From Candidatus Aenigmatarchaeota archaeon (lineage in GTDB: Archaea > Aenigmatarchaeota > Aenigmatarchaeia > JACPZZ01), in assembly GCA_016195275.1 (NCBI GenBank), contig JACPZZ010000001.1, positions 3,046 to 67,045 of the forward strand: DNA of 64,000 bases, written 5' to 3'. This document shows positions 44,534 through 59,836 of this stretch, in pieces (positions within the stretch are counted from its first letter, which is position 1; every line of letters starts with the position of its first letter). A program made the translations under genes and the position numbers. Below the pieces are notes generated by a model that ran no database searches, was not told the DNA's origin, and saw only the letters and a list, made by a program, of their open reading frames with translations.

Positions 44534-45253
44534 TTATACGAATTCCATCTCTTCTTTTACTCTTATAGGCTCCTCGGTCTCAACGGGTTTTTCTTCCTTT
44601 TTCGCCACCGGCTTTATTTTGATATCTTTCTTTTTGCTGCTGTAGAGCTCTGATAGTTCATTGTCCATCTGTATTAACTGCTTAGCTTTTTCAGAAAGAG
44701 CCACTCCGACATTTCCAAAAGGCTCTACAAGGTCGAGAGGGAAAATATAGTTGTCCAAAACCAACCTCGGGTTGCCGAGCACGCCTTCCAGTTTCAACTC
44801 TCCAATAATGTTGGCAGAGGTTCGCAGTACTTTGCTCATAAAAGCTGGCTGGTCTGGCGTGGAGTTCGCGATTATTCCCGACAGTGTTGCCGATAGCGAA
44901 TTTACAAATTCCTCCATCCCAAAACTGTCCAGCAATTTGTCTAAATAGTTGTCTAATAGTATCGATGTAACATCAGATTCTGTTATATCCCTCAAATCTT
45001 TACTCAACAGTTTTTCCTCAAACTTTTCCTTGAGAACTACCAGGTCGCTATTCATTTCGATCAAGCCTGCTTTGATCATCCCCTGTGAATCTTCATTGAA
45101 ATTTGGAAATCTTACAGATATGGCATTCGTATGGGTGAAACCGCCTGTCTTAAAAACAAACCATAGGATTTCTGAAATTTCTCGTATTTTTGGCATCAAT
45201 CGAAGGAACTCTTTTGAGAAGGTTTGCCTTGTCAGTTCGACTATCCTTTCCAT
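44534..45253 (-). CDS. unknown-function protein, paralog family member 2 (Lys/Glu-rich tail)
   Basis: 239 aa. MERIVELTRQTFSKEFLRLMPKI...TPDQPAFMSKVLRT...KKKDIKIKPVAKKEEKPVETEEP. Confidence 0.6.
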   Translation of the reverse strand: MERIVELTRQTFSKEFLRLMPKIREISEILWFVFKTGGFTHTNAISVRFPNFNEDSQGMIKAGLIEMNSDLVVLKEKFEEKLLSKDLRDITESDVTSILLDNYLDKLLDSFGMEEFVNSLSATLSGIIANSTPDQPAFMSKVLRTSANIIGELKLEGVLGNPRLVLDNYIFPLDLVEPFGNVGVALSEKAKQLIQMDNELSELYSSKKKDIKIKPVAKKEEKPVETEEPIRVKEEMEFV

Positions 45254-45606
45254 GGTATTATTTTACCCATAAAAGTTAAATACCCATGTTTTGTAAGAAC
45301 CCTATAGGGTAGTATCACCAAATTACATAATTTGAGGGGTGGTGATACCAAGTGATAGTTAGTAACTCTGGGTTATTAAGGTTTGCTTCAAAGTGCTTTA
45401 GGCTGGTGCCAAAGGTGATGCCAGAATATTCTTCCAAAAAGGAATATAACCAAAGATAGAAGAGCGAGGCTGCCACTTCATCTGTAAAGAGGAAATATGG
45501 TGATAATGTAAGTTCAGGGGGATGAGGCTCACGGCTTTTGTTTACATGTGGACAGAGATTCAAGGGGTTTTATTGTAGGATTTATACAGAGCAAATACCT
45601 ATCGAT

Positions 45607-46374
45607 TCAAACCCACGGAAAGTACTGCCTTAACTTTCTCAACCTCCCTTCCTCTTCTTTACTGTAATATTTTATCACAGGTTTTTCTGTCGGTTTTTCA
45701 ACAGGCTTTTCTTCTTTCTCAACCGCTTCTGGCTTATATTCTTCTTGATAAGCCTTAAAAACTTCTTCGTCGTTGCTAATCCTTTTCACAGCTTTTTCGG
45801 AGAGGTTTATCATAATTCCATCTTCTATTTTTATAAGGCCCAGAAATCTATTCAGATAATAATTAAGAATTTCCTTGCATTCAATAGGCGGGGCATTCCA
45901 TGTCCTGGTGGACTCCCTGTATATACGCCCAACAAACGCAGGCTTTTCGGGAGTTGCGTATCTGATGATTAAGGATAGCACGGTTGTTATGAAATCCGTT
46001 AATTTGTTTCTGCAAAATCCTATTAGCTTTTGTCCGGCATACCCGAATGTCAGCTCAGCAAACATATCTTTTGTCAACGGCTCTTTGTCTATGATAAAAT
46101 TTGCAAACTGTTTATCCAAAGATAAAAAAACGTTTGTGTCTTTATTTTTGCCAAGTGTCCCGAGCGCATGCCACACAATCAGCTTCATTTCAGAAAGAAA
46201 CATGATTTTATTTTCAATGGCCTCATCGACTTCAAGCTGGAATGTTACAAATTTCATAGGCACGACAGCTCCAATCTTGTGCAACGCCCACAGTATATCT
46301 ATATAACCCAATGCTCTGGGCGAAAGCTTGAGAAGATCTTCGGCAAATACAGCTTCAACCCTTCTAAGTTCCAT
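45607..46374 (-). CDS. unknown-function protein, divergent paralog family member 1 (Glu/Lys/Pro-rich tail)
   Basis: 255 aa. LLKLSPRALGYIDILWAL...ATPEKPAFVGRIYRES...EEYKPEAVEKEEKPVEKPTEKP. It starts 34 nt downstream of the MinD/ParA gene. Confidence 0.6.
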   Translation of the reverse strand: MELRRVEAVFAEDLLKLSPRALGYIDILWALHKIGAVVPMKFVTFQLEVDEAIENKIMFLSEMKLIVWHALGTLGKNKDTNVFLSLDKQFANFIIDKEPLTKDMFAELTFGYAGQKLIGFCRNKLTDFITTVLSLIIRYATPEKPAFVGRIYRESTRTWNAPPIECKEILNYYLNRFLGLIKIEDGIMINLSEKAVKRISNDEEVFKAYQEEYKPEAVEKEEKPVEKPTEKPVIKYYSKEEEGRLRKLRQYFPWV

Positions 46375-46408
46375 ATATGGATATTAATTTCGAAGATTAA
46401 AATGATTA

Positions 46409-47266
46409 TTACGCGCCTCTCCCCAATTTTTTAAAGTATCCTAAAAACCTTTTTATCAAGCCCGGCTTTTCTTTGGGTTCTATGGCAGGCTCTCTGAACG
46501 ACTCACCAAATCTCCCAACGCCTTTATCTTTTTCCGGTTTTTCTCCAACCAGACTTGCGGCGAGTTGTATATATGCTTGGCTTGCCCTGGAACCAGGATT
46601 TGATAATATTACCGGGGTTTTTGAGTTCACGCTCTGTAGAATACTTTCATCCTCCGGAATAGACCCAATTATAGGTAAGGCTGTTAATCTTTCTACTTCA
46701 CTTTCTGATAGCTCATAATCCTTTCCTTTTACTCTGTTCATTAAAACACCAATGGGTTCGATATCGGCAACACCGTCCTGGGTCAGCTTAATGGAGAGGT
46801 TCACGATTTTTGCAACGTCAACCGCCGAAGGTATGAAAGGATTCGCAATAAAAAGCACTTTATCACATGCCTTCAAAGCCATCAAAGCCTCTCTATCAAT
46901 ACCAGGCGCAGAGTCAAGCAATACGATGTCAAACATTTCCGACAAATTCTTTATAGTTTTTGTAAAAAGTTCATGGTCTATTCCTTGTAGATCCTGTATA
47001 TTCAAAGAAGCTGGTATTATCCGAAGACCGGAAGGATGGATGTACAATGCTCCAGCCAACGATGCCCTGTTCTGCAAAACTGAATTTAGTGTTATTGGTG
47101 TAATGTAAATTCCAAGATATAAACCAATATGGGCCGTGGTAAGATTACAGTCCACCAGGGCAACTTTTTTATTAAAGTGCTCTGTTAGGGCTAATCCAAG
47201 GTTTATAGCAGTCGTCGTTTTCCCAGCCCCGCCTTTTCCGCTAACTATACCGATAATCCTACCCAA
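46409..47266 (-). CDS. MinD/ParA-family deviant Walker A ATPase with a C-terminal amphipathic helix
   Basis: GIVSGKGGAGKTTTAINLG (deviant Walker A) and IVLLDSAPG (Walker B). The C-terminus PGLIKRFLGYFKKLGRG resembles a MinD membrane-targeting sequence. Confidence 0.85.
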   Translation of the reverse strand: MGRIIGIVSGKGGAGKTTTAINLGLALTEHFNKKVALVDCNLTTAHIGLYLGIYITPITLNSVLQNRASLAGALYIHPSGLRIIPASLNIQDLQGIDHELFTKTIKNLSEMFDIVLLDSAPGIDREALMALKACDKVLFIANPFIPSAVDVAKIVNLSIKLTQDGVADIEPIGVLMNRVKGKDYELSESEVERLTALPIIGSIPEDESILQSVNSKTPVILSNPGSRASQAYIQLAASLVGEKPEKDKGVGRFGESFREPAIEPKEKPGLIKRFLGYFKKLGRGA

Positions 47267-47320
47267 AGCATCACACCACTGATTTTAGATTGATCCTGAG
47301 CTTTAAATGGTTTTTGTATT

Positions 47321-47644
47321 TTAATTTTCCTTGTTGGATGGTTTTTGAGGCGGCGCGATAGAAACTAGTGGCTGAGAATCTGCTTTTAGCGCATCGTTGT
47401 TTTGATTTTTCCCCTTTCTTTCAATTTCTTCTGAATAATGCTTTCGCACGTTTTCATCCCAAGCTTCCATTAAGCCATAACCAAGCATTGTTGCCATGCC
47501 TGCAATTGCGGCCCTTAAATTAATGCCGATCAATGGGATGCCTGAAAGGGTGATCACAACATCTGCGTTAATAACAACCCCTGTATCCAGAATAGCATTC
47601 AGAAGGTCCACCAGTTTGTAATTCAAGTCTCTTTTCGGTTCCAT
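47321..47644 (-). CDS. gvpM: gas vesicle protein, GvpA-family minor component (GvpJ/GvpM-like)
   Basis: LVDLLNAILDTGVVINADVVITLSGIPLIGINLRAAIAGMATM is the GvpA/J/M core. I cannot separate J from M by eye. Confidence 0.75.
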   Translation of the reverse strand: MEPKRDLNYKLVDLLNAILDTGVVINADVVITLSGIPLIGINLRAAIAGMATMLGYGLMEAWDENVRKHYSEEIERKGKNQNNDALKADSQPLVSIAPPQKPSNKEN

Positions 47645-47648
47645 TCAA

Positions 47649-48461
47649 TCAACCCACAAAATGGAAGGGGGGCCAGGGCCCAGAAAATCGAACAGATAGT
47701 CCATGTATTTTATTGGTCTCTTCCAAGAACTTGCCTAAGGCTTCGATTTTGCTATTATGCACGAGACAGGATAGATTTAGAATCATCTCTTTGTCTTTCC
47801 ATTTTCCATCTTCTATATTAATTGTTTTTTCGGCTTTCATTTCTTCCGCAGAGTCTTTAACCTGATCACAAATTTTTTTAGAATATTCTTTATAATATTC
47901 CTCCACCTTCCTCCTTGTTTCATTGATAACTATCAGCTCAAGTTTTTTCTGAAGAACGTAAGCAATGCCCTTGGGCTTCGTTTCAATGTCCATTTTTAAC
48001 CTTTGAATTTCCTCGTTGGTGCTTTCAATTTCTTGGCTAGTGGAACCAGTATCCATGAAAATTTGAATATCGTATTCTGCTTTTCCGTCTAATCTTTCTA
48101 AACTGTTTTTAAGCTTGTGATACTCCGCGCTTAACCATTTCCTTACGTCATCCTCGGTTCCTTTGATTATAGTGTCAAAGGCAAACGGAACGACAGCGCC
48201 GAATTTTTTTGCTGCTGCGTCAATCGTATACAGATGCGAAAAAAGCCACGATTTCACCTCTTCCTCTTTGTTTGATTTGTATGGTTTAGCCAAGCATTTG
48301 TGGACTATGACGCCTATGTCCTTATATAGTATGGCATACACCCTATTATTCCCTATTCCTATGTTCCCAAAACCGGTTTCTGCGCCGCAATTGGTTACAC
48401 AATAGAGATATACGCCTTCGCCAACACTCTCTTCACATTTAACATCATTCACTTTTTTCAC
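47649..48461 (-). CDS. gvpL: gas vesicle protein GvpL/GvpF family
   Basis: GVYLYCVTN...FGNIGIGNNRVYAILYKDIGVIVH...FSGPWPPFHFV. Confidence 0.8.
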   Translation of the reverse strand: MKKVNDVKCEESVGEGVYLYCVTNCGAETGFGNIGIGNNRVYAILYKDIGVIVHKCLAKPYKSNKEEEVKSWLFSHLYTIDAAAKKFGAVVPFAFDTIIKGTEDDVRKWLSAEYHKLKNSLERLDGKAEYDIQIFMDTGSTSQEIESTNEEIQRLKMDIETKPKGIAYVLQKKLELIVINETRRKVEEYYKEYSKKICDQVKDSAEEMKAEKTINIEDGKWKDKEMILNLSCLVHNSKIEALGKFLEETNKIHGLSVRFSGPWPPFHFVG

Positions 48462-48762
48462 CCTGTGGTTCCAAATACACCAACTTCAGAAACATGTTGC
48501 TCAAGGTTTCTCTTAATTTTTCCCTGTTTTTAAAATGATTTTCCCCTTCAACCTTCATCTCTATGCCATTGTCAGAATTTGTAACTACAATCACCGGGAA
48601 TCTTTTGATGGAATGCTTCTTTATGTACCTTACAAAATCCATTTCCCTGGCCCCTATCTTGTCCACATGAATTTTGCTTTCTTCGTGGAGTTCATCGAGA
48701 ATGCCCTCTGCCAATTGCGTATCTTTATCTTTTATGCTGTATATCAACCTTGTAATTATCAT
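48445..48762 (-). CDS. hypothetical protein within the gvp operon
   Basis: 105-aa ORF whose stop overlaps the gvpL start. No known Gvp family recognised. Confidence 0.5.
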   Translation of the reverse strand: MIITRLIYSIKDKDTQLAEGILDELHEESKIHVDKIGAREMDFVRYIKKHSIKRFPVIVVTNSDNGIEMKVEGENHFKNREKLRETLSNMFLKLVYLEPQGEKSE

Positions 48763-48766
48763 GCCG

Positions 48767-49297
48767 TTACCTTTTCTTCATTTTTACAGACAAAAAACCT
48801 TTCTCTTCACCTTTCCTGTATTCTATTTCTACATCTTTGACATAGCATTTTAATGGAACTTCTTTACGATATTTTCCATCTTTTGTTTCTATGATAAGCT
48901 TTTTACCTATAGGGTAGACTTTTAAATCGCTTTCTTCTACAGGCGGGGTTTCCTCCCACACAACTATAGTCTTAATGTCCTCTTCTTTCTTAGGAATTTC
49001 TCCTGTTACCAGCGTTCTTACAGAATAAGAATATTCTATACGCGGTTTGCCTGACCATCCTTTCTCCAGCCTAGACTTTATCTCTTTATCGGTTTCTTCA
49101 ACCCTTTTCTGGAGTTCTGGGGACGCTTTGATTAACTTGCTTACAAATTTTCCTAACCCGGGGATAAAGTTGCCCACGAGTTCCTCTACCGAAGAGATTT
49201 CAGGCTTCTTTTCCTTCTCTTTTTCAAGTTTTTCTGTTTTCTTTTCAAGTTCCTCTATCCTTTCCTTGTCTTTTTTCTTTTTTTTCATTCGCTTCAC
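48767..49297 (-). CDS. GvpH-like / Hsp20-like protein with a Lys/Glu-rich N-terminus
   Basis: 176 aa. The C-terminal ...LIIETKDGKYRKEVPLKCYVKDVEIEYRKGEEKGFLSVKMKK resembles the alpha-crystallin beta7-beta9 pattern. Size and position fit GvpH. Confidence 0.45.
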   Translation of the reverse strand: MKRMKKKKKDKERIEELEKKTEKLEKEKEKKPEISSVEELVGNFIPGLGKFVSKLIKASPELQKRVEETDKEIKSRLEKGWSGKPRIEYSYSVRTLVTGEIPKKEEDIKTIVVWEETPPVEESDLKVYPIGKKLIIETKDGKYRKEVPLKCYVKDVEIEYRKGEEKGFLSVKMKKR

Positions 49298-49300
49298 TCT

Positions 49301-49615
49301 TCATTCGTATGCGGCTACTTTCCCCTCGTTTTGAATGTCCATCTCTCCTATAGCGCTGTTCACTATTTTGTCAAGATCGCCGTTAATGGAATTAACTGTG
49401 TCCTCGAGGTCATTTTCTTTTTTGATATGCCTGATGGTATCATCTAAATCTATCAGGGCATTGCCTAATTTTTCAACTTCTTCTCCGGTCAACCTGCCCA
49501 ACTCCATCCTTCTTATTGCCTGATGCTCTAATGCGTCTTTGATTATCTCAACAAGTGTAATTACTAAACCAAGCAATCCCTTTTTGAGGTTATCCTCATC
49601 GATTTTGACAGTCAT
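49301..49615 (-). CDS. gvpK: gas vesicle protein GvpK
   Basis: LKKGLLGLVITLVEIIKDALEHQAIRRMELGRLTGEEVEKLGNAL. I placed the start at the ATG that forms an ATGA overlap with the upstream stop. The track start at 49651 is the alternative. Confidence 0.8.
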   Translation of the reverse strand: MTVKIDEDNLKKGLLGLVITLVEIIKDALEHQAIRRMELGRLTGEEVEKLGNALIDLDDTIRHIKKENDLEDTVNSINGDLDKIVNSAIGEMDIQNEGKVAAYE

Positions 49616-49947
49616 GCCATCACAGCAACCCTTTTCTTGCATTTTGGGCAACCATGTCCTTCAAAAAACCTTTTTCCTATCAATTCTCCACACGTGGGGC
49701 AATACGTCAAGTCTCCTTGTTCTCTCAGCGCTTTCCATCCTGGAGCATCATAATTAACTCCTGAAGGAAATTCCAGGCCGTACTTTGCTGCTGTTGCGAG
49801 CGAAGCCAGGGTTGCCCTTATTTTTATTCCCAGCAGTTCGGTGCCAGCAACTGATACAACAATGTCCGCGTTTATGACTATGCCTTTGTCTAAAAGTTTA
49901 ATTAACGCTTCAGGAAGCGTCATGACTTCTCTATTATGTGTTATCAT
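49612..49947 (-). CDS. gvpJ: GvpJ-like (GvpA-family) protein fused to a C-terminal CxxC...CxxC zinc ribbon
   Basis: LPEALIKLLDKGIVINADIVVSVAGTELLGIKIRATLASLATAAKYG is the GvpA/J core. The C-terminus is ...YCPTCGELIGKRFFEGHGCPKCKKR. Confidence 0.75.
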   Translation of the reverse strand: MITHNREVMTLPEALIKLLDKGIVINADIVVSVAGTELLGIKIRATLASLATAAKYGLEFPSGVNYDAPGWKALREQGDLTYCPTCGELIGKRFFEGHGCPKCKKRVAVMA

Positions 49948-50324
49948 AGCGCTTTTCCCTCATTTCTATTTGAGGTGGCGGATTTTAACCTCATTCCGTA
50001 CAATCTTTTTTTTGGTTGTATATCAGAATATCTGGGCCTTGCAGGGATTGTTGAAAATTTGCATCCCAACCTGTCTCCTCTTTTTTCAGGTTGTGATGAA
50101 AACGCTGAAGGGTTTAAGTTTTTTGGCCTGCCCGCTTTCTTCATAACCATTAATCGTTTATTGAGATTCACTTTTCTAGCGTATCGAATACTGTTCTGGA
50201 TTAGACTTGACCTCGCCCTGTCCCTCCACATCTGCATTTTCTTTTTCGTTTTTGCTATTATATTTTTTCTGCGCACGCCTGTCCTCATAATTTTGCCAAC
50301 GGAGAAATTTCCTATAGGTCCCAT
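49944..50324 (-). CDS. highly basic hypothetical protein in the gvp operon (possible GvpI analog)
   Basis: 126 aa, very Lys/Arg-rich. It fills the gap between gvpG and gvpJ exactly, with overlapping start and stop codons on both sides. Confidence 0.4.
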   Translation of the reverse strand: MGPIGNFSVGKIMRTGVRRKNIIAKTKKKMQMWRDRARSSLIQNSIRYARKVNLNKRLMVMKKAGRPKNLNPSAFSSQPEKRGDRLGCKFSTIPARPRYSDIQPKKRLYGMRLKSATSNRNEGKAL

Positions 50325-50614
50325 TATGCAACGCCTCCTAATATGTCCATCCTCTGGTCTAATTTCATCTCCCTTGCTTTTACACCCAGTTCCAGCTTCT
50401 CTCTCAAATCAGCATCAATTATTTTGTAATCTTCTTCAGTCCTTTCTCCAATTTCAAAAAGCAATCTGTTTTCTTTTATCATATCTTTGATTTTCGGAGG
50501 ATCATACGCTTCCTTATAGGCAAAATCCCGTATGAGTTTGAATAAAGCAATAGTGTCGAAGGGCAGTATGGAAATGCCAAGAAGCCTTAAAACAATATCA
50601 TCTATGATGAACAC
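50324..50614 (-). CDS. gvpG: gas vesicle protein GvpG
   Basis: MFIIDDIVLRLLGISILPFDTIALFKLIRDFAYKEAYDP...FEIGERTEEDYKIIDADLREKL matches the GvpG pattern. Confidence 0.7.
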   Translation of the reverse strand: MFIIDDIVLRLLGISILPFDTIALFKLIRDFAYKEAYDPPKIKDMIKENRLLFEIGERTEEDYKIIDADLREKLELGVKAREMKLDQRMDILGGVA

Positions 50615-51277
50615 CTACTCGCCTCCTCCTATTTTTATTTTTACAAAATTGTATGGTGGCCAAGGTCCGGTATACTGAATCTTTGGAGCGAGCATTTTTT
50701 CCACCTCATCCACTTCTTTGGAAAATTCCTTAATTTTATTTTTTTCAACCAAGAATGACGCATTCAGGAGCAGCCTCTCGCTAAATAGTTTGGCGTTAAC
50801 AGACTCTACGGCTTTTTTCTTAAGCGACTCAAAAATATACGAAGCGAACTGGATTTTCTTTTCTCCAAGCAATTCCATAAGTTCTTTGCCCAAGACGATC
50901 TTAATTCCGAGCTCAACTTTGTTGTCTAATAATGCCAAAGATTTTTTAATCGCATCATAGCTTTTCTCTAGCACCGAAAGCAGGACTTCTTTATCTTTAA
51001 ATGCCATGCCAAACGCCATCGGTATCACCGTATGTTCTTTCATAACCAGAGTGGCAACTTCATTGTGCGCTTTTATGTTTTCTTCGGTTGATTGATAATC
51101 TGTCAGGGGCGTGTCGCTTACAACAGCGGATATTCCTTTATAAGGAATGGTATAGACTTCGCTGAAATTTCCAATTCCCTTGTTGCCAAAACTTGCTGGT
51201 TTCTCGGTGTTGGCAATTATGCAGTAAACATATTTTCTTTCTTCTATTACGGGATCTTTTCCTGTTTTCTTACTCAT
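50615..51277 (-). CDS. gvpF: gas vesicle protein GvpF
   Basis: KYVYCIIAN...FGNKGIGNFSEVYTIPYKGISAVVSD...YTGPWPPYNFV. Confidence 0.85.
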   Translation of the reverse strand: MSKKTGKDPVIEERKYVYCIIANTEKPASFGNKGIGNFSEVYTIPYKGISAVVSDTPLTDYQSTEENIKAHNEVATLVMKEHTVIPMAFGMAFKDKEVLLSVLEKSYDAIKKSLALLDNKVELGIKIVLGKELMELLGEKKIQFASYIFESLKKKAVESVNAKLFSERLLLNASFLVEKNKIKEFSKEVDEVEKMLAPKIQYTGPWPPYNFVKIKIGGGE

Positions 51278-52121
51278 AGTTAATCATCTGTTTTTTATTT
51301 CTATAATCTGACAACAAGAATTTGGTCAGAATGCCGCTGATCTTGATATGTTCCTCAAGGCTATCTTTTACTTCATGCAAAGAAATATCAACAAGTTTGT
51401 AGATCTTCTTTTTTACAACATACTCATATTGTATCATGCCCTTCTTTTCCAAAGTATGAAGGAGTGGGTATATCGTGCCTGGGCTGAGAAATACGTTGAA
51501 GTTTTTATGCACCGCCTTTATCATATCCGTACCACACATGGGCTTATTCATTAGCAAAGCAAAGATTATCATTTTCAAATCGTTTTTCACATACCGCTCT
51601 ATGGAATCATCTTTGATAACCTTGTCAATAGACTCGGACGATAAAATTGAAATATCGCCTGACGTGAGTATTAGCTTGTCATGATGTGCCACTAAATCCT
51701 TGATAATGGCTGGGTCTATCTTTGTAACATCATATACGCATGATATTGAAGAATTCTTTTGGAATCCCTCTGTCAGGCACTTTTCGTATTTGGCGTGGTC
51801 TTCTTTAGCGATTGAGGCAGCGTCAAAAATTATCTTCAGCTTTCTTTTGCCAGGTTTTAGCGTGCTTAATTTTTCCGGTCTTAATATGGATATATTTGCT
51901 CCCAGTCCATTAAATTTTTTCATTCCGCTGTCAGGGTCGTCATTGGTTACATAGATCACTTTTTCATTTTTTTCTGTTGTAGCCAAAAGTGATGCTTGAA
52001 GCGCACCTTTGTCAATATCCGGGGTATAAAAAACTAAGCCGTGCTTAAAATTGCCCATATCAGATAAAATTGATTTTACATCCAATTTTCCCGAGTTCAT
52101 ACTATTTACCCCTCTCATCAA
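51270..52121 (-). CDS. putative gvp regulator: N-terminal KaiC/RecA-like domain without an obvious P-loop, plus a C-terminal PadR-type winged helix
   Basis: The C-terminus IIFALLMNKPMCGTDMIKAVHKNFNVFLSPGTIYPLLHTLEKKGMIQYEY is a PadR signature. Paralog of 54895..55896. Confidence 0.6.
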   Translation of the reverse strand: MMRGVNSMNSGKLDVKSILSDMGNFKHGLVFYTPDIDKGALQASLLATTEKNEKVIYVTNDDPDSGMKKFNGLGANISILRPEKLSTLKPGKRKLKIIFDAASIAKEDHAKYEKCLTEGFQKNSSISCVYDVTKIDPAIIKDLVAHHDKLILTSGDISILSSESIDKVIKDDSIERYVKNDLKMIIFALLMNKPMCGTDMIKAVHKNFNVFLSPGTIYPLLHTLEKKGMIQYEYVVKKKIYKLVDISLHEVKDSLEEHIKISGILTKFLLSDYRNKKQMINYE

Positions 52122-52404
52122 TCAAGTCTGACCTGCGTCTTACCATTATTTGCCTGTAGTTCAAAAGTTTACCGCCAGGGCTGAACTCCAATTCATACCT
52201 ACCGAGAAGATCCTGAGTGTCCGGAACAGCCTTTCTTTCCAATGTTTCTATCACAGCTTTCCATCCCTGGTCATCTTTGACAACACTCACAATTTGTTCT
52301 ACCGGCTTGTTTACCAAATCTTTCAATGCAGAAAGCCCCAATTTACCTATCTCCACCGGACTCTTTTTCTCCTGTATTATCTCACGGGATGTAGATTTTT
52401 TCAT
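52102..52404 (-). CDS. gvpO: gas vesicle protein GvpO
   Basis: VEQIVSVVKDDQGWKAVIETLERKAVPDTQDLLGRYELEFSPGGKLLNYRQIMVRRRSD matches the GvpO pattern. Confidence 0.75.
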   Translation of the reverse strand: MKKSTSREIIQEKKSPVEIGKLGLSALKDLVNKPVEQIVSVVKDDQGWKAVIETLERKAVPDTQDLLGRYELEFSPGGKLLNYRQIMVRRRSDLIDERGK

Positions 52405-52747
52405 TTACGATCTCCACCGGCTTGCCGATCCAAGTTTTTATCCCCGCTACTATATCATAACCTTCTAATTTTTCTGCTAATTTGTAGTATTTAACAAATC
52501 TGTAAAGCCTTTGGAGGGTCGACTTGCCACGACCTAGAGGTATGACATCAACCGTGTGATCAGGTTTAATACAAGTATAAAAAGTTTCCTTTACCGATTC
52601 CCCGTCCTTTTTTGCTGTCACAACAATAATTTCTGTGTCGTGAAAACCAACCGGTGCCGGCTTCCTAGGAAGGCTGCTTATCCTTACAATTTTTACGTTG
52701 CTTATTACTCCCCGGTCTTTTTTCAAGTTTTTCTCTTTTTGAACCAT
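52382..52747 (-). CDS. unknown protein in the gvp operon, short paralog
   Basis: 121 aa. Shares a domain of about 110 aa with the C-terminus of 52749..53459 (VKIV.I....RKP.....D..II......G...K.TFY..I.P...........K.......F..YYKLA..LE.YD...). Confidence 0.6.
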   Translation of the reverse strand: MVQKEKNLKKDRGVISNVKIVRISSLPRKPAPVGFHDTEIIVVTAKKDGESVKETFYTCIKPDHTVDVIPLGRGKSTLQRLYRFVKYYKLAEKLEGYDIVAGIKTWIGKPVEIVNEKIYIP

Positions 52748-52748
52748 A

Positions 52749-53459
52749 TCAAATTACCTCCGGGATTACAATTTTACCAGAGCTGTCTATTTTAACCGTT
52801 TTTCCCTTCCACCCCTTGGATTCCTCAATAACATCGTATTCTTCCAAGTTATCCGCCAGCTTGTAATACCGAAGGAAATTGATGAATTTTTGCTGGGTAG
52901 GAGTCTTCGCACGGCCATATTTTATACCGAGCATCCCGCCCGGCTCAATATAAGCGTAAAATGTTTTTTTCTCTTTTTTCCCTTCGGGAGTTTTTATTGT
53001 TATGATTATCGCGTCAGATTCTGAACTAAAAGCCGCGGGTTTTTTCCTCCACATATCCCTGATCTTTACAATTTTCACATCCTCTATCACGGGTTTTCTT
53101 AATCCGGCTTTGAATTTTTCCTTCTTCGGCTCTTGTAATTTCGGTTTTTCTTTCGGCTTGGACGGCTTTCTCACAACCTCCTCCTTTTCAACTCTGGTTT
53201 CTGGTTTTTCCGGCTCTTTAATCAGTCCTTCCGGAATTTCTATTATGGGTTGCGTGGGAATTTCTCTATGTTTTTCTAGTTCTAAAACCACAGTTTCTTT
53301 AATCTCTGCAGCAGCTTTAGGTTCCTCTATCCAAACCTCTTCTTTTCCCTCTACGTCAACTTTGCTAATCTCCTCTTTTTCTTTGATTTGATCCCTGAGG
53401 AGCTCAATCTCTTCCTCTTTTAATCTTTGCTTAGATGTTTCAGATGCCTGCCAAGTCAC
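52749..53459 (-). CDS. unknown protein in the gvp operon, long paralog with a Glu/Lys-rich N-terminal region
   Basis: 236 aa. About 120 aa of low-complexity E/K/P-rich sequence precede the shared C-terminal domain. Confidence 0.6.
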   Translation of the reverse strand: MTWQASETSKQRLKEEEIELLRDQIKEKEEISKVDVEGKEEVWIEEPKAAAEIKETVVLELEKHREIPTQPIIEIPEGLIKEPEKPETRVEKEEVVRKPSKPKEKPKLQEPKKEKFKAGLRKPVIEDVKIVKIRDMWRKKPAAFSSESDAIIITIKTPEGKKEKKTFYAYIEPGGMLGIKYGRAKTPTQQKFINFLRYYKLADNLEEYDVIEESKGWKGKTVKIDSSGKIVIPEVI

Positions 53460-54526
53460 TAAATCACACTTTTTATAATTTCTAATTTTTTTGAAAGATC
53501 AGCCGTCCCCTTTGTCTTGGTAACAATTATATCGGTAAGGATTTGCTCTAAATTCTCTGAACCGGATTCTTTAACCGCTTGTCCAACCATGATGGCGGCC
53601 CTTGTGCCCGGCCTTTCCGCTTCTGGTAATTTTGCCCTTAATGTCCTGACTGCTTTCACAATTTCCTTGGCTAATTTTGTTGATACTTCAGAGCGGACCT
53701 CAACGATTTTAACCTCGGTATCAAAGTCGTAGAAATCCATATACACCCCTATCATTCTATCCAATAAAGCGTCTTGAGGTCTGTGCACGCCGGCATATTC
53801 AACAGGATTGCTTGTGAATATTGCCCTAAAATCAGGGTGGACTTTTACGTATCTTTCTTTCCCGAAATGGGTGGGAAGTTCCAATATGCCTTCTTGAAAA
53901 ACAGAAAGCAAAACATTGTTTGCTACCGGCAAACTCCTGGAAAATTCATTGTAAACTAAAGTGAAGCCAAACTTGCAAGCTATCGTAAGAGGGTTGTCAA
54001 CCCAATCAGCGCTCAGTGTGTCGTGGGATTTGAAAACATTATGGATATATTTGTCCCTCAAACTTTCAACTTCTACTTGAGAATAACCTCCGATCAGGTC
54101 TGTAGTTGTCATCTGTCCGTCCCCATTTATCCATACTGTGGACCTGCCCAGCTCTTTTGCCACTTGCATTGCTATCGTTGTTTTTCCACACCCCGTGGGA
54201 CCAATTATGTGGACAGGATGCCCGATCTTGAGCCATATTTTTATCCTTTTTTTTAATTGCTTAATTTCGGGTGTTTCCACAAAGTTTTTAATTTGAGGAA
54301 CAAGGTAAGCAGGATTTTCTTTAATAGGTAGACCTTCGACCCCTATTTCATCCGTGGGGGCCAGCGGTCTGATGTAAGATGAAGTTTCCTTAGCCCTTAA
54401 TTGATTAAGACGATGAGGCCTCAGGCCCATGATCTTTTTAAATTGCCTTTCTTTCCTTTTCGTTTGTATATCTTTGTGAACTTGCTCACCAATAACTTTT
54501 CGAGGATGATCAGACGGTTTTTCCAT
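53459..54526 (-). CDS. gvpN: gas vesicle protein GvpN (AAA+ ATPase, MoxR/CbbQ-like)
   Basis: HPVHIIGPTGCGKTTIAMQVAKELG (Walker A), LVYNEFSRS (Walker B), 355 aa. Confidence 0.9.
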   Translation of the reverse strand: MEKPSDHPRKVIGEQVHKDIQTKRKERQFKKIMGLRPHRLNQLRAKETSSYIRPLAPTDEIGVEGLPIKENPAYLVPQIKNFVETPEIKQLKKRIKIWLKIGHPVHIIGPTGCGKTTIAMQVAKELGRSTVWINGDGQMTTTDLIGGYSQVEVESLRDKYIHNVFKSHDTLSADWVDNPLTIACKFGFTLVYNEFSRSLPVANNVLLSVFQEGILELPTHFGKERYVKVHPDFRAIFTSNPVEYAGVHRPQDALLDRMIGVYMDFYDFDTEVKIVEVRSEVSTKLAKEIVKAVRTLRAKLPEAERPGTRAAIMVGQAVKESGSENLEQILTDIIVTKTKGTADLSKKLEIIKSVI

Positions 54527-54649
54527 TACATTACCTTTTTTATGATCGTTATTAGGATAGATAAGGTTTTTGTTTTGATTATTGTATCGAATTTCGATTT
54601 TAAAAATGAAAAATAAGCTTAAATATAGCCAAATTTAATTAATTAAATA

Positions 54650-54700
54650 GATTAATTAGATTAAGCTGGTTAACTAAGTTGAATTAACTGGATTAATTAG
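54650..54700. promoter_or_regulatory. four copies of a G(A/G)TTAA(T/C)TAAG-like motif in the divergent gvp intergenic region
   Basis: GATTAATTAG (54650..54659), GGTTAACTAAG (54668..54678), GAATTAACTG (54681..54690), GATTAATTAG (54691..54700). Confidence 0.4.
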
Positions 54701-54709
54701 CGTGATGAG

Positions 54710-54892
54710 ATGTTTAAATTAGAACGGAAGACGTCTATAGAAAAGCAAATGGCATGCGACATTTGTGAAAAAGCCACAGGCAAAGGCAGCCCGATGAATG
54801 TTTTCAGGTCGCCTCTTGCCTATACACATATTATCAACGTCTGTGACAACTGTATCCCCAATTTTCCCAAATCATTTATTAAGAAGGGTTAA
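54710..54892 (+). CDS. small zinc-ribbon protein, hypothetical
   Basis: 60 aa with CDICEK...CDNC, directly upstream of the PadR-like regulator. Confidence 0.35.
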   Translation: MFKLERKTSIEKQMACDICEKATGKGSPMNVFRSPLAYTHIINVCDNCIPNFPKSFIKKG

Positions 54893-54894
54893 AC

Positions 54895-55896
54895 ATGATG
54901 AGAGAAAAAATGTCAATTCCGGCGGACGGGAGTATAATAATTTCAAATAAATTGGGCTGGGGCGACCGCTTGCTTTTATTATACGGGGATAATGTAGATC
55001 CCTGTCCTGTCTTCCAATCTTTTGTAAATAACGGGTTAGCTGATGGGAATCTCTGCCTGTACGCTTTTGACGCTACTAGTAATAAATTATTCTTGGGGGA
55101 GGGGGGAGAAGGTCCCAATCTTCGTGCAGTCCCTTTGAGAAAACATGGCCCGGATTTATTAGAAAAATTTTATAACAATCTTAGAACGATAACTACTCGT
55201 ATCAATGCTGGAGAGCATAATGGGCTAAGGATATTGATAGATTTTGGTAAAATAATCAATAGTTCCAATTCAACAGATATCATAGATTGTGAAAGAGAAA
55301 TTTTAAGAAAAACCAAACAATCTTCGCGTATGATGAAAAAATCTTGGTCCAAACTAGGTTTCAAGCGTTATAAAAACGCATTTAAAGAGAAATTTCCAAT
55401 CATCGCACTCACAGCGTATAACATCACATCTATTGATAATGAAAGCATTGAAACTTTAATAGGCCTGCATGATAAAATTGTGGTTTCTGAACAAAATAAA
55501 TTTATCGCACTTTTGCCAAATTTTACTGGCAATCGAGAGATAAGCGTGAAAAATTCTTTAGACATTATTTCAAAAGAAGCTGTAGAAGAGTTTGTTAAAA
55601 AGAATCTTGAGAGCATAATATTGGCGATGTTGTATGGAAAAGCAATGTGTGGTTATGATATGATTAAAATAATCTCCATGCGTTACCATACCTTTGTAAC
55701 CCAGGGAACTGTTTACTCTATCCTATATTCCCTTGAGAAAGGGGGAATTTTAAAAAAAGAGACCATGCCTGATAATAAAACAAAGGTATTTATTTTGACT
55801 GAAAATGGAAGAAATGTTGCCAAAAATAAGCTAACGGAGTTCACCAAGATTTTAGAGTACACGTTTTCCATTTTAAAATTGAACAATCAATTTTAA
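54895..55896 (+). CDS. putative gvp regulator, paralog of 51270..52121 (degenerate KaiC/RecA-like N-domain plus a PadR-type winged helix)
   Basis: C-terminus ILAMLYGKAMCGYDMIKIISMRYHTFVTQGTVYSILYSLEKGGILKKE. N-terminus GDRLLLLYGDNVDPCPVFQSFVNNGLADGNLCLYAF. Confidence 0.6.
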   Translation: MMREKMSIPADGSIIISNKLGWGDRLLLLYGDNVDPCPVFQSFVNNGLADGNLCLYAFDATSNKLFLGEGGEGPNLRAVPLRKHGPDLLEKFYNNLRTITTRINAGEHNGLRILIDFGKIINSSNSTDIIDCEREILRKTKQSSRMMKKSWSKLGFKRYKNAFKEKFPIIALTAYNITSIDNESIETLIGLHDKIVVSEQNKFIALLPNFTGNREISVKNSLDIISKEAVEEFVKKNLESIILAMLYGKAMCGYDMIKIISMRYHTFVTQGTVYSILYSLEKGGILKKETMPDNKTKVFILTENGRNVAKNKLTEFTKILEYTFSILKLNNQF

Positions 55897-56076
55897 AAAA
55901 GTTTTTTTCTCGTGTCGAAACTGGATACAGATCACGATATTCTTTTTAGATGATCTTTTGATATGTAATTTAAAAGATAATGCTTAAAACAGCCCATTTC
56001 TATATTCTGATTAAAGTGTTAGAGACGAGAAAAGGCGAGTCTCTGATAATATATAAAATTGATAGGAGGGCTATAA

Positions 56077-56304
56077 GTGGCAACACCAACTGGGCCAAAC
56101 GTTTCAAGTTTGGCTGAAGTATTGGACAGAATTTTGGATAAGGGAGTAGTAGTAGATGCATGGGTAAGAGTGAATCTAGTCGGCATAGAGATACTATCCA
56201 TAGAGGCTAGAATTGTGGTAGCGTCGGTGGACACATTCTTGCATTATGCAGAAGAAATGACCAAGATAGAACAGGCGGCATTGGCAGTTCCTGTTCCTGC
56301 CTAA
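56077..56304 (+). CDS. gvpA: major gas vesicle structural protein GvpA
   Basis: GTG start 8 nt after [59 protein letters not shown] is the canonical GvpA sequence. Confidence 0.95.
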
Positions 56305-56370
56305 ATTTGAAATTTGGGATGAGCTGAAAAGCGATGAGTCCATTTAATAATTATTAGGGAGGAGTATGAA

Positions 56371-56658
56371 ATGACAGATAAAGAAACAGCAACTGGGACG
56401 ACTGTAAAAACGTTACAGGGGGATATAAAGAAAGAACTCCGAGACTTTGAGGCGAACAGCAAAGAATTCAACAATAGTGTTAAGGACCTTCACGAAGCTA
56501 TGGAAATGAAAGCACACGAGTGGCAAGAATACATGTCCAAAGAATTCAAGCCTTCACTTCAAAGGATGCACGGAGCTGTAAGAAAACTGGTAACAAGGAT
56601 GGAGAAAAAATCGAGCGAATTTCAAGAATATGCAAAGGTGGATTTTTGGGGAGAATAA
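56371..56658 (+). CDS. small helical protein after gvpA (positional GvpC candidate)
   Basis: 95 aa with a GGGAGG Shine-Dalgarno. Predicted all-helical and charged, with repeated E(W/F)QEY(M/A)(S/K) elements. Confidence 0.5.
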   Translation: MTDKETATGTTVKTLQGDIKKELRDFEANSKEFNNSVKDLHEAMEMKAHEWQEYMSKEFKPSLQRMHGAVRKLVTRMEKKSSEFQEYAKVDFWGE

Positions 56659-56704
56659 CCCCATTTAATTTTTTAATTGTGGTTTAAACTAACGGAGGAA
56701 GAAA

Positions 56705-56974
56705 ATGATATTCGGAACTGGTATAGATTTGGGATTAGCCCTATTGCTGGCCGTCGTGTTCGTAAAATATGCGGGCATAAAGCTGGGCAACAGGCCATTG
56801 AATCTTCTAACTGCAGGTGCGATGTTTTTCATACTAGCGGGGGTTCTCAATGGAGCGAACCTAGGTTTTACATTGCCAGCAATAGTTGACACAGCCCTGA
56901 ACACCATAGGCGCAATAGCGGTTGTACTAGGAGTTCTTTGGTCGGCTTGTTTGTTGACAACAGCCAAGAAATAA
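56705..56974 (+). CDS. small 3-TM membrane protein
   Basis: 89 aa with a GGAGG Shine-Dalgarno and hydrophobic helices throughout. Confidence 0.5.
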   Translation: MIFGTGIDLGLALLLAVVFVKYAGIKLGNRPLNLLTAGAMFFILAGVLNGANLGFTLPAIVDTALNTIGAIAVVLGVLWSACLLTTAKK

Positions 56975-57284
56975 GATTCCGGAGTACAGGTGTGGGATGG
57001 CAGGACTTGGGGTAAAGGAGCGTTTGATAGCTTGCCAAGAATTTAAACCAGAGCTCTTCTAAAATTGTCACAATCGCTTCAAAATACACGTGGAACGTGG
57101 GTGGGAAAATGGGCTTTGTTAAATACGCTGAAAAATTAACCGCAATTTGGTGGGTAAAATGGTGAAAAATGGCAGATAAATCAAAAAGTCACTATTTGAG
57201 AAGGGCTAGGGCGTTTCGGCGTAGAAGCATTTCCCGCGCTATGAATAATGGGTATAATAGTTATAGTTGATCAGGGCAAAATAA

Positions 57285-57617
57285 ATGACTAAAAGTACGC
57301 AGGGAGTTTACCTGAGAAGGCTCGGTGCACAAAGACATAGAACTAGCATGCTAAATAAGATCGGAGATTTTAAAAGAGAGAACGTTTATCCGAAGTTCAC
57401 ACTCATGCACGCTGCATGGAAAGAAGAAAACATCGCAGAACTGAAAAAACGAGTATATCCTAAACTCACCCAAGCTCACGCTGGTTATAAACCCAAACTT
57501 CTACCTTCCTTCACCAAGCAAGGGCGCATGAATTGGAAAAAATGGCATAAGAAAAGTTATCTGGATAAAATCGCATATGCCGAGGGCAGACTGAAAAAGG
57601 AAGAGTTAACTATCTAA
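57285..57617 (+). CDS. basic hypothetical protein with an internal VYPK-x-T-x-x-HA repeat
   Basis: 110 aa. ENVYPKFTLMHAAWK and KRVYPKLTQAHAGYK. Confidence 0.4.
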   Translation: MTKSTQGVYLRRLGAQRHRTSMLNKIGDFKRENVYPKFTLMHAAWKEENIAELKKRVYPKLTQAHAGYKPKLLPSFTKQGRMNWKKWHKKSYLDKIAYAEGRLKKEELTI

Positions 57618-57654
57618 TGACGCTTATTTTACATCGAAAACCAAAATATTTATT

Positions 57655-58140
57655 ATGTCAAATACTGAAGATCCAATAAAACCCCTGAGGGAAATAAATG
57701 TTCTTGGAAAGGGAGAGACTAAACAGCCTTTCCCGATTTCAGGAATGAAATGGAAGGGGTTATATTATTTTATTTTTGTGGATGATTTACAGCAACTATT
57801 AAAAATCAATGAAACATATAAATCTATTCGAAAACCAAAATTACTAGAACCTTTACGAGAAGTAAGATTAGTGGGTGGGGGAAATGTCGTAGGATATAAG
57901 CCTTTTCTGTACAAAGGTAGGCAATGTGTATGTATTCTTGTAGAACATCTTAAGCGATTAATAAAAATAAACAGAGAATATAGAAAACTATTGCGAAAGG
58001 GGATACGTAAAAGACCTAGGCCAAGGAAGATAATAGAAGTAAAACCCAAGCACACTGAGTTAATAGAAAAAGGGCTAGAAGCTAAAAAATTAAACCGAAG
58101 AAAAAGAAAATACCGAAGAAAGTTAAGCCTAAACCTGTAA
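57655..58140 (+). CDS. hypothetical protein with an internally duplicated domain of about 50 aa and a basic tail
   Basis: PLREINVLGKGE...YYFIFVDDLQQLLKINETYK is repeated as PLREVRLVGGGN...CVCILVEHLKRLIKINREYR. Confidence 0.5.
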   Translation: MSNTEDPIKPLREINVLGKGETKQPFPISGMKWKGLYYFIFVDDLQQLLKINETYKSIRKPKLLEPLREVRLVGGGNVVGYKPFLYKGRQCVCILVEHLKRLIKINREYRKLLRKGIRKRPRPRKIIEVKPKHTELIEKGLEAKKLNRRKRKYRRKLSLNL

Positions 58141-58472
58141 AAAGGATCAGGAAAAGCCCAAAGAAAAAAATTAGAAAAATAAAACCTAAGCCAAGAAAAA
58201 TTGTTAGGCCGAAGAAACGAGTCAAGAGAAGCGCTAGAAAACCAAAGTCTATTCCTAAGAAGAAAAGAAAGATTACAAAACCAAAGAAAGTTAAGAACGT
58301 CAAGCGTGCAAAGAAGCCCAAAAAAGTTTCTAGAAAAATTAAAAGAGGGCTAGAAAAAATAAAGAAAAAGGTTGTGCAAAGGAAAAAAATTATGAAGCCT
58401 AAGATCATTAAGTCACAAGCATCGAAATTGCTTAAGACTTTAAAAAGAATCTTTACAATAGAAAGAGTGTGA
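58086..58472 (+). other. Lys-rich (KPK/KKP repeat) ORF of 128 codons in the -1 frame with no usable start codon; possible frameshifted continuation of 57655..58140
   Basis: The frame opens at 58086, inside the A6 run 58084..58089. It reads KIKPKKKKIPKKVKPKPVKRIRKSPKKKIRKIKPKPRK... to TGA at 58470..58472. Confidence 0.45.
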
Positions 58473-58474
58473 AT

Positions 58475-58762
58475 ATGCCTGTAAGAGTGGATAGAAACCG
58501 CCTTAAAGAGTCTTTGGACACAGTTATATTGTCGTTTCTGAATAAGAACGCAATGAACGATAAAGATATACCAGAGCTTATTTATAAAAAATTCGGGGTA
58601 TATTTCAGTAATAAAACAATCAACGAATTTCTTGCTTCTTTGGAAAAGAATAAGCTGATAAAGGGCGCAATTGCAAAAAAGGAAAAGATATATTCCATAA
58701 CTGAAAATGGGAAAAAGGCAATCAAAGTGACAGGTAAATTATTGAAAGAACTTGGCTTGTGA
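58475..58762 (+). CDS. small winged-helix (PadR/MarR-like) DNA-binding protein
   Basis: LDTVILSFLNKNAMNDKDIPELIYKKF...INEFLASLEKNKLIKG. Confidence 0.5.
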   Translation: MPVRVDRNRLKESLDTVILSFLNKNAMNDKDIPELIYKKFGVYFSNKTINEFLASLEKNKLIKGAIAKKEKIYSITENGKKAIKVTGKLLKELGL

Positions 58763-59038
58763 TTGCTTTCTCTTTTTCTTATATTTCTTGGCCTCTACTA
58801 ATTCCTTCTCTATCCATCGCACTCCTTTCAGAATTAAAGCCAAAATAAATACTGGTGCTCCCAGTATTACAAATAAAAACAGCCCAAAACCAAGTAGAAT
58901 TAAACCAACGATCAACAACGGTACCCCTATCATTGCGGATAAAGCTAAAAATCCTAGAAACGTGCCAGCCAACGCCAACAACCCCAAACCAATGATTATT
59001 AGGACTACTGCTGATAGAATCTTTCTCAATATTTTCAT
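58739..59038 (-). CDS. small polytopic membrane protein
   Basis: 99 aa with 3 hydrophobic helices and a basic C-terminus. Confidence 0.45.
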   Translation of the reverse strand: MKILRKILSAVVLIIIGLGLLALAGTFLGFLALSAMIGVPLLIVGLILLGFGLFLFVILGAPVFILALILKGVRWIEKELVEAKKYKKKRKQSQAKFFQ

Positions 59039-59044
59039 ATATCA

Positions 59045-59342: not shown

Positions 59343-59487
59343 AGCGTGAAGTCACCACAAATCGCAAAGGTAAAAATTTCAGGTATGCCTACAGATTGAC
59401 TGAAACAGCTCACGACTCGCTAAGGATTTAGAGGCTGAGCTAAATGAAGACACCGTCTGAAAAAGTGACCGAAAAAGCGAATTTAAC

Positions 59488-59703: not shown

Positions 59704-59836
59704 GATTACTTTTTGTTTTTATTGCTTATAAACTTCGGCAGGGTAACATAGGTAATTATATTCTTAACGCCCTCGTTAAGTAAGGAAGAATGCCAATCGC
59801 TGTAGATGACAGAAGCGTCATATTCACCCGACTTGA

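Follow-up and report, generated by a model that had tools for sequence, protein, structure and literature searches.

We analysed a window of archaeal DNA, by which we mean the whole 64,000-nt stretch at positions 3,046 to 67,045 of contig JACPZZ010000001.1 (forward strand; Candidatus Aenigmatarchaeota archaeon, assembly GCA_016195275.1), for the gas-vesicle (gvp) genes that it carries. An initial annotation, made from the letters and their open reading frames (ORFs), had described a gas-vesicle gene cluster of non-classical organisation at 47321-56974, arranged on two divergent and tightly packed strands. Taking coordinates as positions of the window, ORFs from a six-frame listing and families from Pfam and NCBIfam profile scans, we found every gene named there to be present and recognised the following features.

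43396-60484, no strand: genomic island of ~17.1 kb with the gvp genes, between tRNA-Asn (~43203-43382) and EF-1alpha (60489-61754).
53459-54526, minus strand: gvpN, an AAA+ ATPase that heads the accessory operon (TIGR02640 E 4e-99, 331 bits against a cut-off of 267; PF07728 AAA_5).
52749-53459, minus strand: unk236 (236 aa), with a Glu/Lys/Pro-rich N-terminal half and the C-terminal domain of a gvpN-gvpO-linked family.
52382-52747, minus strand: unk121 (121 aa), a stand-alone copy of the unk236 C-terminal domain and paralogue of unk236.
52102-52404, minus strand: gvpO (PF05800 E 6e-19; Halobacterium GvpO phmmer E 2e-14).
51270-52121, minus strand: regulator R1 (283 aa), with a MEDS-like N-domain and a GvpE/PadR-type winged helix (PadR E 2e-8).
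50615-51277, minus strand: gvpF (PF06386 E 2e-47).
50324-50614, minus strand: gvpG (PF05120 E 1e-8; Halobacterium GvpG phmmer E 7e-11).
49944-50324, minus strand: gvpI homologue (126 aa; the "basic ORF" of the initial annotation), by BLASTP and phmmer against Halobacterium GvpI.
49612-49947, minus strand: gvpJ with a C-terminal CPxC...CPxC zinc ribbon (PF00741 E 1e-12; Halobacterium GvpJ phmmer E 2e-18).
49301-49651, minus strand: gvpK (PF05121 E 2e-21).
48767-49297, minus strand: GvpH-like small heat-shock protein (176 aa), with a coiled-coil N-terminus and an alpha-crystallin domain.
48445-48762, minus strand: unk105 (105 aa), an accessory gene of lineage-restricted distribution, flanked by the gvpH-like gene and gvpL.
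47649-48461, minus strand: gvpL (PF06386 E 1e-56, full length).
47321-47644, minus strand: gvpM (107 aa; PF00741 E 7e-14; Halobacterium GvpM phmmer E 1e-19, best match in the genome).
46409-47266, minus strand: MinD/ParA-type ATPase (PF01656 and PF10609), an island gene 54 nt downstream of gvpM.
54527-54709, no strand: divergent promoter region of 183 bp between gvpN and the Zn60/R2/gvpA arm, holding TCGAATTTCGA at 54587-54597 and TTAATTA-type repeats.
54710-54892, plus strand: Zn60 (60 aa, CxxC...CxxC), an orphan ORF 2 nt upstream of R2.
54895-55896, plus strand: regulator R2 (333 aa), a paralogue of R1 upstream of gvpA (PadR E 4e-10).
56077-56304, plus strand: gvpA (75 aa), single copy, major shell protein (PF00741 E 6e-16).
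56371-56658, plus strand: hel95 (95 aa), two ~33-residue helical repeats ending in ...EYAKVDFWGE.
56705-56974, plus strand: TM89 (89 aa), a small lineage-restricted protein with three transmembrane segments.
57285-57617 (110 aa) and 57655-58140 (161 aa), plus strand: two basic ORFs that continue the gvpA arm and have orthologues in the related locus L041.

The eight genes that we take to be the sufficient haloarchaeal set, gvpA, F, G, J, K, L, M and O, are all present without internal stops (by Pfam, and by phmmer with Halobacterium proteins). For haloarchaea, eight of the fourteen gvp genes have been described as sufficient for vesicle formation (PMC9501494). The 1.07-Mb, 34-contig assembly holds three PF00741 genes, all of them in this cluster, and the encoded GvpA shares 74-87% identity with its counterparts in Methanothrix, Methanosarcinales and Bathyarchaeia, with GvpN 47% identical to that of Halobacterium. 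The 14 minus-strand genes make up a single operon running from gvpN to gvpM, in which neighbours overlap, abut or lie no more than 4 nt apart. The gene list of the initial annotation holds but not its boundaries, as the conserved set runs to ~58140, and probably 58472, on one side and to the MinD gene on the other. The annotation had further counted at least five ORFs without a recognisable Gvp family, and we found eight ORFs unmatched to Gvp families in Pfam or NCBIfam, with two conserved families and two lineage-restricted genes left outside the described Gvp families after profile checks.

The order of these genes follows a published archaeal type. Methanosarcina barkeri carries gvpAAA-NOFG-JHKLM (PMC9501494 Table 1), and the window order on one strand, N-(x-x)-O-(R1)-F-G-(I)-J-K-H-(x)-L-M, differs from the methanogen type only by a swap of K and H. 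A GvpN search of species genomes gave 30 loci, and mapping all window proteins onto them revealed a recurring layout, A(n)-[helical gene]-N-[unk121]-O-[regulator]-F-G-J-...-K-L-M, hosted by Methanothrix/Methanotrichaceae, Methanosarcinales, Bathyarchaeia, Hadarchaeota and Nanoarchaeota/Woesearchaeota metagenome-assembled genomes (MAGs). Within the host's own class, genome G217 (locus L038) has A-N-unk121-unk121-O-regulator-F-G-GvpI-like on one strand, and a distinct relative represented by a 135-kb NCBI chromosomal contig (JAIYGV010000004.1, locus L041) reproduces the window architecture gene for gene, including the divergent R2-gvpA-helical-3TM arm, unk105 and the two further basic ORFs, at 56-86% protein identity for most members and 41% for hel95. 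Peculiar to the window and L041 are the inversion of a single gvpA together with a regulator of its own, the placing of K ahead of H, and the added genes; among the loci compared, gvpA is divergent from gvpN in these two only. As an aside, the GvpM orthologue of L041 (11113-12048) has 311 aa against 107 aa in the window, its C-terminal extension giving weak PH/Vps36-GLUE-like matches.

Because the backbone order equals the published M. barkeri type and recurs in MAG loci, the organisation is not new. The initial annotation was right that the cluster departs from the haloarchaeal gvpACNO/gvpDEFGHIJKLM layout. Its reading of N and O at the head of the accessory operon as non-classical does not hold, this being already the methanogen layout and common to ~20 archaeal MAG loci; what survives of the "non-classical organisation" is the inverted single gvpA, the K/H swap and the extra genes, and not the backbone. 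That annotation had also said that its view would fall if all unknowns were assigned to known Gvp families and the order proved to be of a described type. About half of this came about, in that the order matches and three of the unknowns belong to known Gvp families.

One of these is the "basic ORF", listed among the unassigned members, which by BLASTP, phmmer, motif and position is a GvpI homologue. It matches GvpI of Halobacterium pNRC100 at BLASTP E 6e-12 (29% identity over 100 aa), is the sole match when Halobacterium GvpI is searched against the 13,406 stop-to-stop ORFs of the genome (phmmer E 5e-8), shares with it the C-terminal motif ST[IV]P..P[KR]YSD..[KR]RLYG.RL, and like it is encoded immediately upstream of gvpJ. 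Among the fetched loci, the homologue occurs in DPANN-type loci only. The Hsp20-like ORF has, by profile comparison, a true alpha-crystallin domain: its family profile matches the small heat-shock protein 4rzk in the PDB at E 1e-12, and the ORF itself matches the NCBIfam archaeal Hsp20 family at E 2e-4. At 31-33% identity to a Methanotrichaceae gene between gvpJ and gvpK (L004, L018), it appears to be the methanogen-type equivalent of GvpH. The L004 counterpart scores weakly on Pfam HSP20 and GvpH (PF05455; 21.4 bits against a cut-off of 22), and the similarity of the window protein to Halobacterium GvpH is marginal (hhalign probability 42%, E 3e-4). The zinc ribbon on GvpJ is no special trait of this locus: the Cys4 tail is conserved from Methanothrix and Bathyarchaeia to Desulfoluna and Desulfatiglandales and is widespread in archaeal and bacterial GvpJ.

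With respect to regulation, the initial annotation saw no GvpD or GvpE homologue, which stands for GvpD by sequence and fails for GvpE at the level of the domain. Halobacterium GvpE itself passes the Pfam PadR (PF03551) threshold, R1 and R2 are likewise above the cut-off and align with one another, and an alignment of 13 members of the R1/R2 family matches GvpE residues 80-150 with an hhalign probability of 97.3% (E 2e-11). The best match of GvpE in the genome is R1 (phmmer E 8e-9), which lies directly upstream of gvpF, the position of gvpE in haloarchaea, and a winged-helix signature, LSPGT[IV]YP.L..L...G, is common to the R1/R2 family and GvpE/PadR. On these comparisons, R1 and R2 each combine a DNA-binding domain homologous to GvpE with a degenerate P-loop-like (MEDS) domain. 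An AlphaFold2 model of R1 (predicted local distance difference test score, pLDDT, 75) has a C-domain that superposes on LmrR/PadR structures at template modelling (TM) scores of 0.7-0.8 relative to the target, and a six-stranded alpha/beta N-domain that matches RecA/F1-type and ORC ATPase folds; the N-domain sequence (~160 aa) of R1 and R2 has no Walker A motif. Seven database homologues of the family carry a precomputed match to MEDS (PF14417). We considered and rejected a GvpD-like N-domain. Searches for GvpD (PF07088, PF20440), a protein that in Halobacterium matches KaiC, gave no match by Pfam, BLASTP, hhalign (E 0.4) or genome-wide phmmer, and because the two share only the broad P-loop/RecA-like fold class, we do not call the N-domain a GvpD homologue.

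The regulator family is rare, with 22 clusters in a word-limited search and none of them named. The L041 orthologue of R2 is 56% identical and has the same divergent placement. A 411-aa protein combining receiver (REC), MEDS-like and PadR domains is encoded ~4 kb from the gvp genes of "archaeon isolate Yes46-13" (L030, 11375-12610, minus strand), and this receiver-domain version supports a signalling role for the family. Near the right end of the island there is also a third PadR-like winged-helix ORF (58469-58762, 97 aa), at E 6.5e-4 and below cut-off. In the literature searched, we found neither a MEDS/P-loop and GvpE-type fusion for gas-vesicle regulation nor a paper relating GvpE to PadR, coverage being incomplete and no proof of novelty. 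As for what the regulators might bind, TCGA-N3-TCGA occurs twice in the window against 0.94 copies expected, which is no enrichment; one copy, TCGAATTTCGA at 54587-54597, lies in the gvpN promoter, and seven related loci (L003, L005, L006, L007, L008, L010 and L012) have the motif ~90-260 bp upstream of gvpA or gvpN. TCGAATTTCGA is possibly an element bound by the regulators.

Two further families recur across archaeal clusters. In 16 related loci, a helical repeat protein of 57-386 aa is encoded immediately after the last gvpA and ends in Y-x-K/R-x-F-Y/W-G, with repeat periods of 18/25/43, 32-33 or 57-58 residues. A hidden Markov model of these tails, built without the window, was searched against the genome ORFs and returned hel95 as its only significant match (E 8e-6; next best 0.33), the hel95 repeat having a lag of 33. 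As a GvpC family member, hel95 was ruled out; its position, helical composition and ~33-residue repeats suggest that it may be a functional analogue of GvpC. Between the helical gene and gvpN, six Bathyarchaeia loci (L003, L005, L007, L008, L010 and L011) have in addition a conserved basic ORF of ~53-70 aa with the motif ...AVNA.ERD.KI.WLRK.RE...RPQRVRMLWV.DL..., which has no counterpart in the window.

The second family is that of unk121 and unk236, the C-terminal 120 aa of unk236 aligning with the unk121 family over a common domain of ~115 aa. Loci of Methanothrix, Hadarchaeota, Methanosarcinales and DPANN, and one of Bathyarchaeota, have a gene of this family between gvpN and gvpO, and a family profile searched against 1.84 billion representatives gave only 57 matches at E<=1e-3. 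Neither protein has a Pfam or NCBIfam family. The AlphaFold2 model of unk121 (pLDDT 83, predicted TM score 0.76) found no Foldseek fold match in the PDB (best E 0.18, TM 0.29), where a sequence-profile search also gave no match, and the longer family members have no informative fused domains. The published gvp table for Methanothrix thermoacetophila lists Mthe_0056 (gvpO) and Mthe_0058 (gvpN) and no Mthe_0057 (PMC10470525); with an unk121-family gene at this spot in related Methanothrix/Methanotrichaceae loci, we infer that Mthe_0057 is a member.

The remaining ORFs are more narrowly distributed. No Pfam, NCBIfam or PDB match was obtained for unk105, which has four homologues at 65-83% identity, those on the L041 and L042 contigs at the same position of the gvp cluster. 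TM89 has no Pfam or NCBIfam family and a 63% identical orthologue at the same position in L041, and, apart from L041, orthologues of unk105 and TM89 are confined to a few short metagenome contigs. The two basic ORFs at 57285-58140 have orthologues in L041 that come after TM89 in the same order (71% and 55% identity), and they have no Pfam family. The protein encoded by the second has two ~50-aa internal repeats (PLRE..L.G.G...), and a Lys-rich tail downstream of it is reached in the window by a -1 shift (57655-58472); because the L041 orthologue is one ORF of 309 aa, this tail is part of the ancestral protein, and a frameshift, a sequencing error at the A-run or recoding would account for the copy in the window. 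Zn60 has no Pfam or NCBIfam family and no tblastn match in related loci, L041 included, and for want of any homologue we doubt it and consider that it may not be a gene. At the other end of the cluster, the MinD gene has a parallel in the classical vac region of Halobacterium pNRC100, where gvpO is followed after 28 nt by a ParA-family gene (L040, 10436-11200).

The island is lacking in five congeneric genomes. In three of them (G235, G237 and G238) the flanks align up to window position 43395 and resume at 60484-60489 with ~0.2-1.2 kb between, at 76-83% DNA identity over long segments, and it is because both junctions are located in these empty-site alignments that we give the insertion as ~17.1 kb. 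The flanking genes, Topo VI-A (41364-42443) and EF-1alpha, are 84-98% identical in congeners and spaced ~0.8-2 kb apart there (0.8-1.9 kb in G234 and G236) versus 18 kb in the window. The left junction falls within ~13 nt of the 3' end of a multi-intron tRNA-Asn, whose acceptor stem can be recognised by its halves GCCCCGG and CTGGGGC, and the right junction falls just upstream of EF-1alpha. The G+C content falls to 0.39 over 43688-56974, the genome mean being 0.4545 (standard deviation 0.024 for 13-kb windows, of which 0.6% are as low), so that hardly any part of the assembly is poorer in G+C; that of the flanks matches the genome. The tRNA-Asn 3' end is not directly repeated at the distal border of the island, and no integrase, transposase or attachment-site repeat was found at either end (43396-43690 and 59837-60394). 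An ORF at 58779-59342, tried as an rve-type transposase remnant, has no Pfam match and was rejected, and a TFIIB-like zinc ribbon is matched, at E 4e-5 and below cut-off, by the last ORF on the right of the island (185 aa).

Across the host phylum, where genome sizes of 0.4-2 Mb fit a placement in DPANN, gvpA (PF00741) is present in 3 of 371 genomes and in none of six congeneric species. The L041 cluster adjoins genes for leucyl-tRNA synthetase (LeuRS), FtsZ and Spt5, whose best matches are in the window genome; because these neighbours are not tRNA-Asn and EF-1alpha, the gvp unit has moved. A quick maximum-likelihood tree of GvpN makes the window and L041 sister to Nanoarchaeota/Woesearchaeota (SH-like approximate likelihood ratio test, SH-aLRT, 96) within an all-archaeal clade, and groups GvpN of the same-class genome G217 with a Methanosarcinales sequence (SH-aLRT 100), which suggests more than one entry of gvp clusters into the host class. 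The source reads are groundwater metagenomes. Two DPANN MAGs with gvpN and gvpO (L009 and L016) have titles containing "0.1um" or "0.1_MetaG", a hint at 0.1-um filter fractions, and such an origin would mean that cells passing coarser filters carry gas-vesicle genes.

We interpret the region as a complete gas-vesicle island of the methanogen/uncultured-archaeon type that was acquired horizontally by one species of small-genome groundwater archaeon, a reading that we hold at a probability of roughly 80%. It is a known kind of system, a variant of a described cluster type in an unusual host and with new parts. Every member except Zn60 is conserved in at least one independent genome, and the island is probably functional. 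By analogy with haloarchaeal and bacterial systems, GvpA would form the ribbed shell, GvpJ and GvpM would nucleate and organise assembly with F, L, G, K and I, and GvpN and GvpO, probably with the two copies of the N-O-linked domain protein, would drive enlargement. The GvpH-like small heat-shock protein would keep hydrophobic subunits soluble, and hel95 would coat and stiffen the shell as GvpC does elsewhere. R1 and R2 would bind the AT-rich divergent promoter, possibly at TCGA-N3-TCGA, and couple expression to a signal sensed by the degenerate P-loop domain.

Several observations weigh against this account. For many of the genomes that carry gvp clusters, vesicles have never been observed. 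In the case of hel95, unk121/unk236, unk105 and TM89, the proposed roles come from position and conservation only, and neither hel95 nor seven longer members of its family (L002-L018) match a Pfam GvpC repeat (PF01304, PF05465), where Halobacterium GvpC as a control scores E 3e-74. The MEDS matches of R1 (22.5 bits, E 1e-4) and R2 (24.2 bits, E 3e-5) are below the gathering threshold of 29.8. TCGA-N3-TCGA is absent from the window gvpA promoter and from L041, for which reason, together with its lack of enrichment, it is a lead only. The last ORF of the gvpA arm (161 aa) is apparently truncated or frameshifted relative to its L041 orthologue, with 55% identity over the first 128 aa. Beyond the preferred reading, one may go further and see in non-halophilic archaeal clusters a parts list of their own, with a single-chain regulator in which a degenerate KaiC/RecA-like sensor domain is joined to a GvpE-type winged helix, functionally a fused GvpD-GvpE, acting on a TCGA-N3-TCGA operator, a repeat protein that replaces GvpC and is anchored by its C-terminal Y-x-K/R-x-F-Y/W-G, and a GvpN/GvpO partner of new fold, such that ultra-small DPANN cells build working vesicles and float in groundwater with the first DPANN buoyancy organelle; we put this forward tentatively, as somewhat against the odds.

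Of the rival explanations, the most serious is that the cluster is real but a silent or decaying cargo, brought in by a recent transfer to a reduced-genome host that makes no vesicles. The lack of a gvp cluster in all six congeners and in 368 of the 371 phylum genomes fits this, as do an island composition unlike the genome, the one apparently truncated gene and the little room that cells of such size may offer to vesicles. We nevertheless regard it as unlikely, with ~20 core-cluster ORFs all intact and their start and stop codons coupled, and with 17 kb, or ~1.6% of the 1.07-Mb assembly, being an unlikely length to keep unused; moreover, the full architecture retained by the distinct relative in L041, at 56-86% protein identity, argues for purifying selection on every member, including the unassigned ones. 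A genuinely new cluster type, without GvpD/GvpE logic and organised unlike any described cluster, is very improbable and in our view largely refuted: the published methanogen order and ~20 MAG loci have the same backbone, a GvpE-type domain and GvpI are present, and five of the eight unknowns are GvpI, GvpH-like or of families conserved across gvp clusters, which outweighs the divergent gvpA seen otherwise only in L041, the lack of GvpD by sequence and the eight ORFs without a Pfam or NCBIfam Gvp family. Finally, the contig could be mis-binned, belonging in truth to a methanogen or a member of Bathyarchaeia, so that the DPANN host would be an artefact. Methanothrix and Bathyarchaeia are among the closest named relatives of GvpA and GvpN and the island G+C content is unlike that of the genome, but the island sits inside a 69-kb contig whose Topo VI-A, tRNA-Asn and EF-1alpha flanks match the G+C content of the genome and are syntenic with 0.6-0.9-Mb congeners at the DNA identity given above, and the neighbours of the L041 cluster also point to the window genome, leaving this explanation scarcely credible.

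Under the preferred reading of an acquired gas-vesicle island, an archaeon with a 1-Mb genome in groundwater keeps 17 kb for gas vesicles, and should vesicles be produced, one would have to ask what limits the size of this organelle in ultra-small cells and how episymbionts are positioned in the water column. The literature searched, with incomplete coverage, yielded no paper that connects gas vesicles with DPANN except via the haloarchaeal hosts of such lineages. GvpI and the GvpE DNA-binding domain, haloarchaea-specific in reviews, occur in distant non-halophilic archaea, which alters the evolutionary picture of the regulatory and accessory genes. Genes of methanogen clusters that have been treated as unrelated spacers include two conserved families, one a candidate GvpC substitute and one a candidate GvpN/GvpO partner. 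Such parts are of practical interest as well, given that gas vesicles are buoyancy organelles engineered as acoustic and magnetic resonance imaging reporters, for which compact clusters and shell-binding proteins are actively mined.

Among known systems, the methanogen type (M. barkeri; M. thermoacetophila Mthe_0055-0073) is alike in its N-O-F-G-...-J-...-L-M backbone, Cys4-tailed GvpJ, Hsp20-like "H" and helical repeat gene after gvpA, and in having neither GvpD nor a Pfam-type GvpC. This type has been described as lacking gvpD, gvpE, gvpC and gvpI (PMC9501494), whereas the window has a GvpI homologue and a GvpE-type domain. Where methanogens have 3-4 tandem gvpA copies upstream of gvpN and co-directional with it, the window has a single gvpA, encoded on the other strand alongside a regulator of its own; it also differs in placing K before H and in its two copies of the N-O-linked domain. 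Its additions to the methanogen type are the GvpI homologue, the in-operon MEDS/GvpE-like regulator, unk105, TM89 and the MinD gene, and its host, a groundwater archaeon with a small genome, is not a methanogen.

The vac region of Halobacterium salinarum pNRC100 resembles the window in having two divergent units, GvpI directly before gvpJ, a GvpE-type winged-helix regulator directly before gvpF, and all of A, F, G, J, K, L, M, N and O. It differs in its gvpA-C-N-O operon, as N and O of the window ride with the F-M genes, which they lead, on the strand opposite to gvpA; the window further lacks GvpD and Halo_GVPC repeats, has its GvpE-type domain in two copies fused to a degenerate P-loop/MEDS-like domain, and shows only marginal GvpH similarity. 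The Bathyarchaeia and Nanoarchaeota/Woesearchaeota MAG loci (L001-L016, from public assemblies without annotation) share the order A-N-O-[MEDS/PadR regulator]-F-G-J-K-L, in which the regulator that separates O from F belongs to the R1/R2 family. Unlike the window, these loci have gvpA co-directional with gvpN, and those of Bathyarchaeia lack GvpI and, except for L014, the N-O-linked gene, and add a third GvpF/L paralogue.

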